A stretch of 64,000 nt of DNA from positions 57,722,001-57,786,000 of the forward strand of contig OX597821.1 in the NCBI GenBank assembly GCA_951406725.2. Direction: 5' to 3'. Below the pieces are notes generated by a model. It was not told the origin of the DNA. It did not search any database and was given only the letters and a program-made list of their open reading frames with translations. Positions 144-62,056 of this stretch are shown piece after piece. Both the position numbers and the translations under genes were made by a program. The stretch comes from Octopus vulgaris. Its lineage: Eukaryota. Positions within the stretch are counted from its first letter, which is position 1, and every line of letters begins with the position of its first letter.

Positions 144-226
144 TCATCTGACGAGAATGGTTTCTTTCAAATGATGTAATGTTTCCATTAATCAATTAAA
201 TGAGTCGCTTGAAACGGTCGTAATGA
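144..226 (+). ncRNA. Type I hammerhead ribozyme-like motif with long, degenerate stem II
   Basis: TCAT-CTGACGA(148-154)-56 nt-GAAAC GGTC GTA(220-222)-ATGA. Stem I is TCAT/ATGA, stem III is AC/GT around a GGTC loop, and the cleavage triplet is GUA. Stem II pairs only partly. Confidence 0.6.
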
Positions 227-2653
227 ATTGACACTTGTGCATCTTCCTTACTCATTCATATATTATACATATATATATATATATATATATATATATATAT
301 ATATATATATATATACACGCATTTTGTTGATGTTTGAGCATGTGCATATTATGATATATGGTATTTTACGAGTTTTTGACGCAAAATTAATCTATATGTG
401 TGTGTGTGTGAGACGTGCTTCCACACACTTTTTATTTCTTAAATTTACTCACAAGCCATTTGTCAGCTTAGTGCTTAAGTACTAGACACTTGTCCAAGTT
501 GTCATGCGTTAGGACAGAATTCTAAGCCACATGGTTGCAAAGCGAATTTCTTTAGCCAGACATCCATGCCTGCACCTATACATACGACATTGGCTAAAAA
601 AAAAAAAACTTGATATATTCCGCCGTACAGTATAGTGCCTAATTATTTCATAAATTATTTTGTTATAATAAAATTAAATGTTATCGACCGACATGAAAAG
701 AGCTCTATAAATGCAACATTTTATATTACTTTATATTTCAGTGTTATGTAAGAACTTCTAGTTTTGCAGGATTTGCATTAAATTTTGAAAAGAATTCTCA
801 AAGGTAATTAATCACATATTGAAATAACATAAAAGTGAAAGCCAAGTTTAAAACCGCTAGATACTATATCAAAAGCTATCGTTCCAAATTCCAGTAATTG
901 GTGTCACAGATTAAAGGAAATATTAATAAAGTTATTCTGTAGCATGCCTAATACTATGCACAATTTTTAACTCTCACAAATGTTAAGTGTATATTGTCAT
1001 TAAAATTTACTAGTTTTTCTTTTTTGTTGCTGTTTAACACTCAAGTCAGATTTGATCTTGTTTGTGTTTTTTCGCTTCAAGCATCATGTCGACAATTTTA
1101 AGATTCACTCGTTGGTTGGATGACACTGAGTGGGTGTCACAGTTAATATACAGGCGTAGTCGATATTTCACTCTCAATGACTCGATCCACTTATGTATTG
1201 ATAGTTACTATGTGGAGGTGGAATTATTCCTGTAAGGAGTATGAGTATGAAACGAACAATTCTGCATATCGTTTGCTTGTTGCTTTCGTCATTTTAACAG
1301 TCATGTAACGGAATTCAGGTACAAGTCGAAGACTGGCGTGCAAGAATTCTACGCCTATATTGCATAGATAATAATATGTTCTATACGCACCGTATCCATC
1401 GACCTGCTCATACAAATCCTTAATGTTTCTACTTTAATATGAATATTTGAACTAAAATGAATACTAAACCCTCTCTTTCTCTTTTCCTTTCTTTCTTTTT
1501 TCTCCCCCCCCCCCCTCTCTCTCTCTGTCTATCTTCTTATTTATTCATCAATTCTTTCTGTGATTTTTCTCTCTTTCTATTATAACACTCCATATAGACT
1601 CTACCGCTCTATGTGACCTCTCTCCCTATCGCCGCTGAACTAATGAAGAAAGTGCGGAGATGTTGGTGCTGGTGTATTGATTTACTGAACAACTTGCACA
1701 ATGAATATTATTGTGTGTGTGTGTGTGTGTGTGCGCGTGTGTGTGTGTGTGTGTGTGTGTGTGTGTGTGTGTGTGTGTGTGTGTGTGTGTGTGTGTGTGT
1801 GTGTGTGTGTGTGTGTTGCCCGTAAATCAACAAAACACTTTTTTCCTCAATGGAAAGAACAACAAAAGTCTTAACAAAAACTTAGTCGTCTCAAGAAGGG
1901 TTCTTAACTCCTGTTTGCAAACAATGGTGATTTCTTCGACTTTGTTAAAAGTTTTGGTTGAAAATTTATTTTTACTGCTATTCGCTGGTGCCTCTGGGAA
2001 AAATAAGTTGACGAAAATTCAGCTTGGGCCATAACGAATGTCTTAAAATTGGAGCGACATGCGTGCTAATTTGTGGACGTGCACAAATTACATTCACGTA
2101 CACACACACACACACACACACACATACACACACACACACACACACACACACACACACACACACACATCCTGCCTTTTATATATACAGATGTATAATTATG
2201 AGTGTGTATGCGCGTGTGTGTGTGCCTGTGCGAGTGTGTGTCGCTTGAATATACATAAAGTGTATGAAAAATTAATTAGACGAGCACTGGACATATATAA
2301 AGATTAAATATAGTAAATATTTTAAAACTCATATATGTAGATATGTCTTTTATATACATGCTTCAGTATATCTATTATTTACTTATGTATGCGATTATGT
2401 ATAAATCTACATTTCACACATGCACCAAAACGAATACATACATATATGTTTGTATTTATTTATGTATGAGTGTACGCGTACGTACATATATGTATATATA
2501 TATATATATATACATATGTGTGTGTCTATATAAATACATATATATATCGTGATTATACTACTTATTCATAAGCTTATATTTGGGTGTGGTGTTTGGCAGG
2601 CAATATTTGTGTCAAAGTAACACAAGATTGTTGAAACAATGCGTGATACTTAC

Positions 2654-2781
2654 AAATATAATATTTACAAGTGATCAAATATCGATCTACACTGATAGCT
2701 GTGAGAAAGCCAATATTTGCTAGTCCAAACAACATCCCTGTGAAGCCATACCACTGACAACCAGTTGTACCAAAGATCCAC
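2654..2781 (-). CDS. RRH: Peropsin-like opsin (class A GPCR), internal exon encoding ECL1-TM3
   Basis: Translates to (V)WIFGTTGCQWYGFTGMLFGLANIGFLTAISVDRYLITCKYYI, with WxFG, the TM3 Cys, Tyr at the bovine-113 equivalent and DRY. Acceptor ctttttcag|G at 2782 and donor T|GTAAGT at 2653. The phase-2 start matches the upstream exon. Confidence 0.8.
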
Positions 2782-2876
2782 CTGAAAAAGATGAGAAAGA
2801 GAAGTTTCAATTAACGTACGCAAGCCATTTTCTAGAAAATATACACTTTATATATATCCTCTACTTTCTTTTCGTG

Positions 2877-3079
2877 TACGAGGGTTTGCTGAAAAGTTCC
2901 TGGCTTTGGGTAAAAGAGGATCAGTCAATTATGATTTCATTTAACATACTCCCCTCTCAGATTCACACACTTATTGCAGCGGTCCTTTACTTTTTCTAAG
3001 CCCTGTAAAAGAACTCGGAAGGTTGAGCCTCCAACCAGGTCTTTCGCGACAGCCAGGAACTTTTCTTCACCCCCTCGTA
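2877..3079. mobile_element. Mariner-derived MITE
   Basis: Imperfect TIRs tacgagggtttgctgaaaagttcctggct ... agccaggaacttttcttcaccccctcgta with TA ends; about 200 bp, non-coding. Confidence 0.75.
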
Positions 3080-59629: not shown

Positions 59630-61625
59630 TAGATAAGGCCGGTTTATGGGATTATCCTGGATTTCACGTTCATAAAGCGCATAGCTTTACGTTGTATCAT
59701 CAGATCCCCAAACCTTTTAACTTAAGGTCTCCCTAACGAGTGTCCGCTCTAGAATGTGAAGGAGGAAAGGGCCTCGTTACTCAATGTCACAACAGAGGAG
59801 TCTCTCCCTTTGGCTATCGATCGCAAGTGAGCCTGTTATCTTGTGGGTTCCAATAAGCCTGTAGGAATTTCCTGAAATGCAAGCACGGTCCAAAAACCTC
59901 CATTCTGGAGTTAAGGATGTTCCCCGGGACGAGGGAGTCTTTTTGCTAGGCATAGTTTACAACGCTTGATCCCGTTTATGCAGGGGTCTGGATTTTCTAG
60001 GATTCTCCATGCTATTGTGTATGGAATCCTGTCGTCTTTCACCTGTCATACATGGCTGGCTAGTGATGCAACGTATCTCCTTTCCGGTATCCTGAAAGAG
60101 GATCTGTGGCTGGAGAGGCGTTGTTTGAATGTGTTTCCGGAGCAACTTATGTACCTCCGTGGTCGGGTTTTGGCAGTGTTGTGTCTGATGGTGTTGGCGT
60201 TACTGCTACCGCTGGTGTTGGCAATGGTGCTGTTGTTATTATGGTCATCGTCATTGATGGAGATGCTGTCATTTCCGTTAGGGATACTGCCATTGCTGTC
60301 GTTAATGTTGTTATTGTTGTTATCGCTGGCGATGGTGCTGCCGCTGATTATGTTCGTTCTCTGTTGCTGCTACTATTGATACTATCGTCCTTGCTACTCT
60401 AGTGGCCGTTGGAGGAACTGCTTATGTTGCTGCTGCTATTAGGGTCGACCAGCACCTGAGCTTCATAGGCGACTCACTGGTTTCACAGTGGCCTCTCACT
60501 GGGCAACAGTTGTGATCCCTGCATGAGCATCCTACCTCCGCTCGTGGTCTAGGGGTGCTAACTAGAATGCTCTTAATATTGGGGGCACAACTAAAAGAGA
60601 CCCTAAGGTTGTGCCTTTTGAAAATGCGTATATATGTGAACGTGTGACATATTTATCTATTAAGGAATATCCTACCTACATACGTTTTTACGTTAAGAGA
60701 GAAGAGGTGGGGGCAAACCAAATGATTTTTCTGTGACCCCTCCTTCCACGTATGTTAGGGCCCGGCATATAGGAGACGCAATCCCTAAATCCGCCAGCAG
60801 CTAGAGCCTTGTTATTAGTATGGGGCTGCTGCATCAAAAATCTCCTGGCTGGAGGAAAGGTTCGTGATCCTATTGCTAACAACCTTCACCAGATTTTTTA
60901 ACGTAATGGGTGGGTGACAGGAGGCTGTGTTGATGTACGTTAGCCTCTCATTTGGCTTGAGGTAGGGCCTGTATTACTGAAGCCCAACTCGAGCGTGACG
61001 TCTCAGAAGTCTGTAGGGGAGCCAAGTATGCTAATTAGATATTTCTTAAGCTTGTCTAGGGTGTTTCCGTTTGCTCTTTTAGAGATGGCCAGGGCATCGT
61101 CTCTGTAGAGACCAAAGAGGACACAGGGGAACTTTTTGTTAAGGGTACCAAGGGTATACAACTCGATGAGGTAAGTCCCCATCGCTACGTCAAAGGAGCC
61201 CTTGGGGTCGGATTGCTTGACCCAGGTCGAACCTTTATTGAACAGCACTGCTTTTCTGGCGTGCATAACGACATCCATATCCTTGTCGCTAACGTCAGTG
61301 GAGCCCCTAGCAAAGGAAAGTGCCTTGATCAGTAACCCTTTTGACATAGACGGGTAAAAATTGACTATGTCAAATTGGGGAACATTGCTCTGCCTCTCCC
61401 CTTGTTGGTATTAAACCATGCAACCACCTCGATGGTGCTACACCATAAGGAAAAGTTGGTGACTCACTTTTGTCGTTATTGATGTTTCTCAATATATGCT
61501 TGCTCGCTCGACCAATCTCCGATTTGGCCGGATTAATCAGGCGGCATTTAGGGTTTGAGGCAAAGTTCGGTTAATGATTTGTGATGGTAATAAACGCGTT
61601 CCTTTTAGCTAAGATCTTAAAGATG
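59630..61625 (-). mobile_element. Penelope-like retroelement (RT plus GIY-YIG), 5'-truncated and decayed, with 3' hammerhead
   Basis: NPKCRLINPAKSEIGR, FDIVNFYPSM, HARKAVLF..TWVK, FDVAMG, GLYRDDALAI, RPYLKPNE..YINTASCHPP, RKIIWFAP, WRILE..RCKLC, ILNSRMEVFGPCLH. Flanked by (TA)n. Confidence 0.92.
59641..59714 (-). ncRNA. Type I hammerhead ribozyme in the PLE 3' end
   Basis: ggtttggggat-CTGATGA-tacaacgtaaagctatgcgctttatgaacgt-GAAA TCC A GGA TA-atcccataaacc. Stem I is GGGAT/ATCCC plus GGTTT/AAACC, stem II is CGTAAAGC/GCTTTATG, and the triplet is AUA. Confidence 0.8.
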
Positions 61626-61925
61626 TACATATATATATATATATATATATATATATATATATATATATACATACATAATTTACATATATATATGCATATA
61701 CATATGCATATGTATATGTATGTATGTATATGTATATATATAATAATAATAAATATTAGGGAATAAATCCAAATTTACAGGGAAAAAATCAGATTTAGGA
61801 TTAAATCCAATTTTATATAGTAAAATATTATAAAATATTATTAGAGACAAAACCACTATTTTGCAAAACAAACAAGGAAAGACTTAATCAATACATAAAA
61901 TTTTAATAAATAGTCAAAAAAAACG

Positions 61926-61968
61926 CCACTACAATTGTTTCTTGTCTTGATCGACAATCTTCAGGTGG
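61926..61968 (-). ncRNA. Minimal type I hammerhead ribozyme (left arm)
   Basis: Exact reverse complement of 62014-62056. Confidence 0.85.
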
Positions 61969-62013
61969 ACTTCCAATAAGTCAGTTTTAATTTGAAACTG
62001 ACTTATTGGAAGT

Positions 62014-62056
62014 CCACCTGAAGATTGTCGATCAAGACAAGAAACAATTGTAGTGG
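62014..62056 (+). ncRNA. Minimal type I hammerhead ribozyme (right arm)
   Basis: CCAC-CTGAAGA-TTGTC gatcaa GACAA-GAAAC AATT GTA-GTGG. All three stems pair, the stem III loop is the palindrome AATT, and the triplet is GUA (cleavage after 62052). Confidence 0.85.

Follow-up and report, generated by a model that had tools for sequence, protein, structure and literature searches.

Why does one stretch of the Octopus vulgaris genome hold so many hammerhead ribozyme motifs? The stretch in question, here called the window, comprises 64,000 nucleotides (nt) of contig OX597821.1 (G000:C8:57722001-57786000) in a 2.8-Gb, microsatellite-rich genome, and an initial annotation, made from the letters alone, had described it as a dense field of about ten hammerheads left by Penelope-like elements (PLEs). 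We count eleven motifs. They are very probably type I hammerheads at the 3′ ends of nine PLE families. Repeated target-primed insertion at (TA)n tracts is likely to have left them here, and cleavage is predicted for RNA dimers only, taking place mainly in the source elements and not in these genomic copies.

Hammerhead motifs in the window

All 40 CTGANGA words in the window were put through strict, medium and loose descriptors of the type I hammerhead, with 300 dinucleotide shuffles of the window, made in 200-nt blocks, as the chance control. The strict descriptor gave 4 matches against a shuffle mean of 0.03 (maximum 1), the medium 5 against 0.29 and the loose 10 against 1.26 (maximum 6); the words themselves numbered 40 against a mean of 22.8 (maximum 37). 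The initial annotation had proposed this comparison as a check on itself, and the outcome places the motifs far above shuffled sequence. It had also proposed a search with the Rfam Hammerhead_1 model, which gave no such backing: at the gathering score there were no matches in the window and 20 kb of flank (84 kb), and no hammerhead appeared among the 150 of 272 matches listed from an E-value scan of the window, a scan dominated by microsatellite matches to microRNA models. Genome-wide, 6 of 73 scored candidates stood above the cut-off of that model (RF00163).

The cores of the eleven motifs start at 148+, 9111-, 12649-, 13302+, 13797-, 15082+, 16046-, 49645+, 59703-, 61964- and 62018+, five on the plus strand and six on the minus strand. 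Helices I, II and III surround the core with helix I open, which is the type I layout, and all 11 invariant core letters are kept in nine copies (C3 U4 G5 A6 G8 A9, G12 A13 A14 A15.1, U16.1, H17). The two broken cores are 9111- (motif 9021-9117), where GAAG replaces GAAA and A15.1 is G, and 13797- (motif 13676-13803, with a 97-nt helix II region), where U16.1 has become A. At each of the ten sites named at the outset the letters form a CUGANGA...GAAA...UH arrangement, intact or decayed, and all are copies of type I hammerheads; that list had nevertheless included the two broken cores and overlooked 13302+, and its sites 61926(-) and 62014(+), both present (cores 61964- and 62018+), are two arms of one palindromic insertion. 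The association with (TA)n tracts held up as well: a tract of (TA)5 or longer lies within 300 nt downstream of 9 of the 11 cores, compared with 23% of random points.

Several other words were rejected. CTGAGGA at 15160+ is spurious as a core and is not kept in its family, whose true core is 15082; 10325- lies within DNA-transposon-like sequence and is likewise spurious. CTGACGAAAC at 27060-/28447+ fell outside the descriptors, as did 3244+, 41650+ and 54076-.

Nine repeat families

Assignment to families, another check proposed with the initial annotation, places the motifs in nine genome-wide repeat families. In nine genome-wide DNA searches, one per family, 40 candidates were scored each; the first-look candidate counts, which are rough lower bounds, were 968 for F62018, 957 for F59703, 2455 for F12649, 2243 for F148, 802 for F13797, 328 for F13302, 769 for F15082, 1398 for F16046 and 234 for F49645. 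F62018 and F16046 are young, with 97-99% identity among best matches, the others lying at 80-96%; the decayed motif 9111- is about 70% like F13797. All nine families bear the signature of PLE insertion, namely a sharp 3′ end at (TA)n, 5′ truncation, an inverted partner and an optional tail. Inverted sequence of the same family was found upstream at between 3/20 and 14/20 loci in eight families, and the 46 arms of F62018 include 16 such pairs.

Among 178 distinct best-scoring, mutually related family copies, 42 of 1865 core letters deviate from the column majority, against 887 of 15135 letters at other positions; the core is intact in 134 of these copies and damaged in 44. We read this as selection acting in the source elements and followed by decay. 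The stems had been said to differ between families while keeping their pairing, and this is borne out by a sister of F12649 at locus L418, which is 71% identical over 520 nt, retains the same core and has both sides changed in 4 of 5 helix I pairs and in 2 helix III pairs. At L275 all five helix I pairs are changed relative to F12649; one helix III pair of F59703 is C-G in 17 of 25 copies and T-A in 6; and in L239, an older relative of F62018, the first helix II pair is swapped. The motifs are real hammerhead-type sequences, and about nine PLE families carry them at their ends.

Ends of coding Penelope-like elements

One link to coding sequence lies within the window. The F59703 ribozyme (59647-59709, minus) sits in the 3′ pseudo-long terminal repeat (pLTR) of a broken PLE, about 130 nt past an open reading frame (ORF) at 59900-61410 on the same strand. 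This Hydra-type ORF comprises a reverse transcriptase (RT) piece with YRDD (61006-61410), a CxCX5C linker and a GIY-YIG endonuclease, and is interrupted by stops and frameshifts. The endonuclease lies 116-169 nt upstream of the ribozyme in 13 of 25 F59703 loci.

For F16046, no ORF was found within 1.5 kb across 20 loci. Walking upstream led to L365, which holds a whole pLTR-ORF-pLTR element with cores at 3561 and 8612, 5051 nt apart (a 5.05-kb unit), its ORF interrupted by stops and frameshifts and followed by about 2 kb of AT-rich sequence before the 3′ ribozyme. This overturned the notion of F16046 as a non-autonomous 1.5-kb element: the window copy (15546-16541; motif 15954-16052, minus, with a 68-nt helix II region) is the truncated 3′ end of a 5.1-kb Hydra-type PLE that is complete at L365. 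A 2.75-kb triplication of F16046 on C18, considered as a PLE tandem, is a local duplication with short interspersed elements (SINEs). At L019/L025, in a piece of F16046, upstream sequence is fused straight to the 3′ tail without a ribozyme.

The F15082 motif (15076-15196, plus, in a copy from about 14286) has a 90-nt helix II region and a 2-bp proximal helix I. One of six extended copies of this family reaches an endonuclease about 1.5 kb upstream, joined by overlapping homology; of this parent, linker and endonuclease only were observed. A sample match at L281 has the same long spacing between ORF and ribozyme. Parent elements thus carry 1.5-2.2 kb of non-coding 3′ sequence, and because such long AT-rich regions separate ribozyme from ORF, the ORF is absent from most copies. 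The initial annotation had taken the missing RT next door as a sign of non-autonomy; given these 3′ regions, it is weak evidence.

The RT and endonuclease fragments in the window went unrecognised by Pfam and were identified by motifs and by mutual tblastn. RT followed by a C-terminal GIY-YIG domain is present both at 59900-61410 and in L365, and the CxCX5C linker occurs in the parents of all three families; L365 shows DKT, CxxC and CxH, and the window element CxxC and CxH. The RWK motif reads KWK in L365 and was not seen in the other parents. The PLE origin put forward at the start is thereby supported, with three families joined to RT/GIY-YIG coding sequence and all nine bearing PLE-type insertion features. 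The Hydra-type ORFs also contain Asn/Ser-rich low-complexity inserts, within the endonuclease in F59703 (60049-60369, minus, in the window; also L223) and within the linker in L365. Five further Hydra-type endonuclease loci (L315, L323, L325, L331 and L332) have other hammerhead families 310-840 nt downstream, with helix II regions that are short or 50 nt.

For three families no coding parent was found. In F148, nested truncations without coding sequence reach at least 1.7 kb upstream, and the window copy is the 3′ end of a 5′-truncated element (motif 142-228, plus, with a 56-nt helix II region, a palindromic helix III and a predicted cut after 222). F49645 extends likewise for at least 570 nt; its window copy is short (motif 49639-49701, plus, with a predicted GUU cut site) and has an inverted partial partner at 49558-49623. 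Both families are expected to have long 3′ regions like those of the coding PLE families. Copies of F13797 mostly begin 45-95 nt before the core and finish near +480, and the stretch that had looked like an upstream part of this family (window ~13860-14110) belongs to the element's own 3′ end, in inverted orientation.

ORF-less units and a short head-to-head element

F12649 and F13302 have a different layout. At 14 of 25 F12649 loci, sequence from the family's own 3′ part recurs upstream without a change of orientation and without an ORF between, and in 13 of those 14 the period is 440-500 nt, mostly 476. The window copy (~12448-12882, with an intact motif at 12595-12655, minus) is one such circularly permuted unit, and the sister family of F12649 shares the ORF-less permuted arrangement. 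F13302 has a 446-nt period in L146, with the same continuation in L143, and this segment, used as a query, turned up in two settings, as a sharp 3′ end and immediately upstream of the ribozyme; the window motif (13296-13355, plus) has one change in the helix III palindrome. No PLE protein was found upstream at any of 25 F12649 or 20 F13302 loci, and none of these loci (drawn from 2455 and 328 candidates) has two complete ribozymes one period apart. The two families are candidate retrozymes by their sequence organisation, being units of 446-476 nt with a type I hammerhead and without an ORF. In the F13302 unit of L146, a GT donor also follows the core by about 75 nt and a pyrimidine-rich AG acceptor precedes it by about 85 nt, which suggests a retained intron of about 285 nt in a circular unit.

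F62018 is an element of about 250 nt that is usually found head to head, as in the young palindromic insertion at 61746-62150, between (TA)n tracts, where a minus long-tail arm (core 61964) meets a plus short arm (core 62018). All 46 distinct arms begin within about 35 nt upstream of the core and none reaches further. Thirty-two make 16 head-to-head pairs, 14 stand without a ribozyme-bearing partner, and no head-to-tail tandem occurs among the 46. Every pair combines one long 3′ end, carrying a 70-nt tail, with one short (15 pairs by exact probe, one with a single mismatch). The 5′ leader is a short hairpin, inside which the pair junctions vary. The read-through RNA of a pair folds to one 160-bp hairpin (-248 kcal/mol) with both cores buried, which makes the pairs unlikely to be active dimers.

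The last 165 nt of F62018 are 86% identical to the F16046 3′ end, the ribozymes of the two being different, and in L365 an F62018-like tail abuts the ORF. F62018 likely uses the enzyme of another element. There is an even chance, as we judge these sequences, that this young 250-nt element lives on Hydra-clade PLEs as a SINE-like parasite, with its own hammerhead and only the 165-nt 3′ end in common with a nearly whole PLE of the genome, each pair being a long-tail and a short-tail cDNA made on opposite target strands. Among the sequencing runs searched with F62018, none recorded as RNA was listed; four contig runs contain related sequence, which bears neither on transcription nor on RNA ends or circles.

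Folding and a proposed mechanism

Folded as a hairpin, helix III costs energy in six intact copies (+2.1 to +2.4 kcal/mol), whereas pairing as a dimer is favourable (-5.8 to -10.0 kcal/mol); 12649 may fold alone. Cleavage as a dimer is the published model for PLE hammerheads (PMC4209133), and dimers of Schistosoma PLE hammerheads cut weakly. In vitro, the protein of an anole PLE begins synthesis at two internal sites, one on either side of the tail, and both target strands are extended (PMC11167929); we infer that the long and short ends of F62018 pairs arise by the same process.

The following scheme would account for these features. The PLE protein would nick a (TA)n target, and reverse transcription would begin close to the RNA 3′ end, from either of two sites, and mostly break off early, so that copying would favour the ribozyme-bearing end. 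Head-to-head pairs would result when each of the two target strands primes a cDNA, and ORF-less families would use PLE protein in trans. Helix III would form between two ribozyme copies, the long helix II would be a tolerated insert, and copies would decay after insertion.

Several points weigh against this reading. The self-cleavage of all copies is predicted from sequence. Stems are weak in some intact copies, with a 2-bp proximal helix I at 15082 and 16046 and a mismatch at the helix II base in some; helix II folds no better than shuffled sequence at 148 (z 0.11) and 15082 (z -0.38), and the window copy of 13302 forms no stable dimer helix. In published work, one of nine Xenopus dimers cut in vitro, and cleavage of the anole PLE ribozyme needed protein and was dispensable for insertion (PMC11167929). 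The gap between core and neighbouring positions is significant in five of nine families and not in four, the copies being related and selected by score. A coding parent was not found for F148, F13797 or F49645; lone same-strand RT fragments lie near single copies of F148 (L398) and F49645 (L425), and these are interrupted and prove nothing. The coding link of F15082 depends on a single copy, and the Hydra-clade label of the coding parents rests on motifs.

Alternative explanations

One alternative dispenses with any non-autonomous master: all nine families would be truncated ends of autonomous PLEs, the short copies with a fixed start arising from reverse transcription that begins at the tail of the 5′ pLTR and runs off at the mRNA 5′ end. 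Internal initiation has been demonstrated in vitro (PMC11167929), the tail directly precedes the ORF in L365, and three families that seemed wholly or partly non-coding within 1.5 kb turned out to have coding parents. Such a parent should, however, also give copies extending into the 3′ untranslated region, and none of the 46 F62018 arms passes about 35 nt upstream of the core; moreover, 14 of 25 F12649 copies run upstream into their own 3′ sequence, with a period near 476 nt and without an ORF. We regard this explanation as unlikely. It is also doubtful, to a slightly greater degree, that the field consists mainly of true non-LTR retrozymes, whose transcripts would be cleaved by tandem ribozymes and closed into RNA circles that then serve as templates for reverse transcription. 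Elements of this kind are known in mussel, coral and axolotl (PMC7229834), and the more-than-unit, circularly permuted, ORF-less copies of F12649 and F13302, with a sister family alike, would suit them. The description fits only two of nine families, however; no copy has two complete ribozymes one period apart (among 25 of F12649 and 20 of F13302), ordinary PLE templates also give partial tandems, and in the head-to-head pairs both cores lie buried within the 160-bp hairpin. The initial annotation had offered solo pLTRs or retrozyme-like elements as the choice. What we find is a mixture, with PLE ends (F59703, F16046, F15082), retrozyme-like units (F12649, F13302), the short F62018 and three further families (F148, F13797, F49645).

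Retention of some copies by the host as regulatory ribozymes is very improbable. The idea is prompted by 9111, 12649, 13797 and 16046, which lie on the same strand as, and upstream of, a G-protein-coupled receptor (GPCR) exon at 7042-7380. In two of those four motifs the core is broken, strands across the window are mixed (5 plus, 6 minus), and each window copy is as far from its family as the other copies are. That chance alone produced the motifs in AT-rich, repeat-rich DNA can in practice be dismissed: shuffled windows do yield 1.26 loose matches each, and CTGANGA sites such as 10325- and 15160+ are spurious, yet the counts (4 against 0.03 by the strict descriptor in the window, 14 against 0.2 in the genome sample described below), the conservation within families and the compensatory changes refute it. 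As for the GPCR exon, 7042-7380 (minus) encodes part of a rhodopsin-family GPCR (7tm_1, E 6.6e-7, just below the curated cut-off) and ends at a GT donor.

Abundance and the long helix II

A descriptor refined on the window families was run on 80 evenly spaced 10-kb stretches from 28 contigs (799,700 nt). It found 14 motifs against 0.2 in 20 shuffles (maximum 1), a density of 17.5 per Mb that corresponds to about 49,000 genome-wide (Poisson range 27,000-82,000), with decayed copies left out of the count and two pairs of matches clustered. In the window, which was picked for motif density, the same descriptor gives 5 matches against 1.1 expected (P 0.006; 0.017 by insertion). The initial annotation had envisaged a very large unannotated ribozyme repertoire, which the estimate supports; the window itself is unrepresentative and should not be scaled up, because it is about 4.5 times denser than the sampled average.

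In the pooled DNA that was fetched there are 172 distinct matches in 32 clusters, all with a self-complementary helix III, a property built into the descriptor. In 19 of these clusters the helix II region measures at least 44 nt (range 44-117 nt). The expectation of minimal hammerhead forms is therefore a poor description: helix III is a palindrome of 6-12 nt, and helix II is often long. The core searches of Craig et al. (2021) used 7-17 nt spacers, with half-cores 35-50 nt apart recorded in Naiads (PMC8557442); the long spacing was thus glimpsed there and, in the account given, apparently not described as an extended helix. For comparison, about 9,000 PLE hammerheads are reported in Xenopus (PMC4209133), totals of about 5,000 and 126,247 hammerheads are given for mussel and axolotl, and an Rfam-based count in giant squid gave 235 (PMC6962438). 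Rfam-based counts can miss most such motifs, and tens of thousands of long-armed hammerheads in this genome may escape Rfam.

A further repeat, with GAAA before CTGA, is present as decayed copies at 47966-48042 and 30421-30499 (both plus), each right after a microsatellite, and as three more copies in the 800-kb sample; a fuller copy in L023 has a possible cut-site block further upstream and three pairings. At 47944 (plus) a CTGATGA core half with upstream element sequence is ended by a (TA)n tract and this repeat.

Other features of the window

A Hydra-type GIY-YIG fragment without a ribozyme lies at 18238-18675 (minus), its 3′ end replaced by a mariner-like element whose transposase fragment (HTH_48) occupies 17607-18170 (minus). 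Inverted repeats of 344 nt, 95% complementary, at 26868-27211 and 28296-28639 flank 1084 nt containing a SINE, and the unit as a whole (26868-28639) looks likely to be a non-autonomous DNA transposon. Tandem arrays of SINE-like units, with 98% matches, occupy 35234-35893 (184 nt × 3.6) and 11686-11979 (140 nt × 2.1).

Relation to known elements

Much of this has precedent. Hammerheads in PLEs, their pairs on opposite strands, the PLE origin of animal retrozymes and the presence of Hydra elements in Octopus have all been published. The PLE pLTR hammerheads of Cervera and de la Pena (2014, PMC4209133) share with ours the type I order, the palindromic helix III and the many families per genome, as well as an unpaired base after A9, a bulged helix II, variants with a 2-bp helix I and numbers in the thousands per genome; most copies there are likewise single and truncated, with opposite-strand pairs 100-700 bp apart. 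They differ in that the published helix II has 6-8 bp, whereas 44-117 nt separate the core halves in 19 of 32 clusters here, and in that the total estimated here is about 49,000 as against about 9,000 in Xenopus. The Hydra-clade PLEs of Craig et al. (2021, PMC8557442), among them Hydra-1_Obim of Octopus bimaculoides with its (TA)n preference, resemble our coding parents in the C-terminal GIY-YIG domain, DKT, CxCX5C, CxxC and CxH motifs, (TA)n insertion, hammerhead, inverted partner and optional tail. They are generally shorter than 3 kb, whereas the L365 unit is 5.05 kb long with about 2 kb between ORF and ribozyme; in addition KWK replaces RWK in L365, and the tail here is about 70 nt long, compared with 30-40.

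The ORF-less units of a few hundred bases, each with a type I hammerhead and many of them monomers, are like metazoan non-LTR retrozymes (PMC7229834; Li, Clavereau and Pollet 2026, 10.64898/2026.07.22.740005), which have been proposed to derive from PLE pLTRs and to use PLE enzymes. In contrast to published retrozymes, F12649 and F13302 appeared here only in partial tandems carrying one complete ribozyme, and F62018 is head to head, not tandem; neither of these two studies appears to include a cephalopod. The Poseidon PLE of Anolis (PMC11167929) likewise has two 3′ ends bracketing a tail, AT-rich targets and extension of both target strands, but its ORF starts inside helix II, whereas in L365 about 500 nt separate the ribozyme from the ORF that follows it. 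In the literature we found no census of PLE hammerheads in cephalopods, PMC8557442 and PMC6962438 being the only relevant cephalopod work, and no head-to-head mini-element with a tail common to a named PLE, although supplements may bear on both points; examples of a long helix II may be contained in the supplements of PMC4209133, in File S2 of PMC8557442 or in the preprint.

Since the general association of PLEs and hammerheads is known, the gain here is a good test system and a corrected census, and not a new kind of system. The copying of ribozyme-bearing non-coding elements by PLE enzymes has long been a proposal. The window holds side by side the ends of autonomous elements, circularly permuted ORF-less units and a tiny young element whose tail is common to an identified PLE. 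If F62018 is indeed a PLE parasite, it would provide a matched enzyme and a minimal RNA template with which the mobilisation of RNA by PLEs in trans, and the part played by the ribozyme, could be approached.

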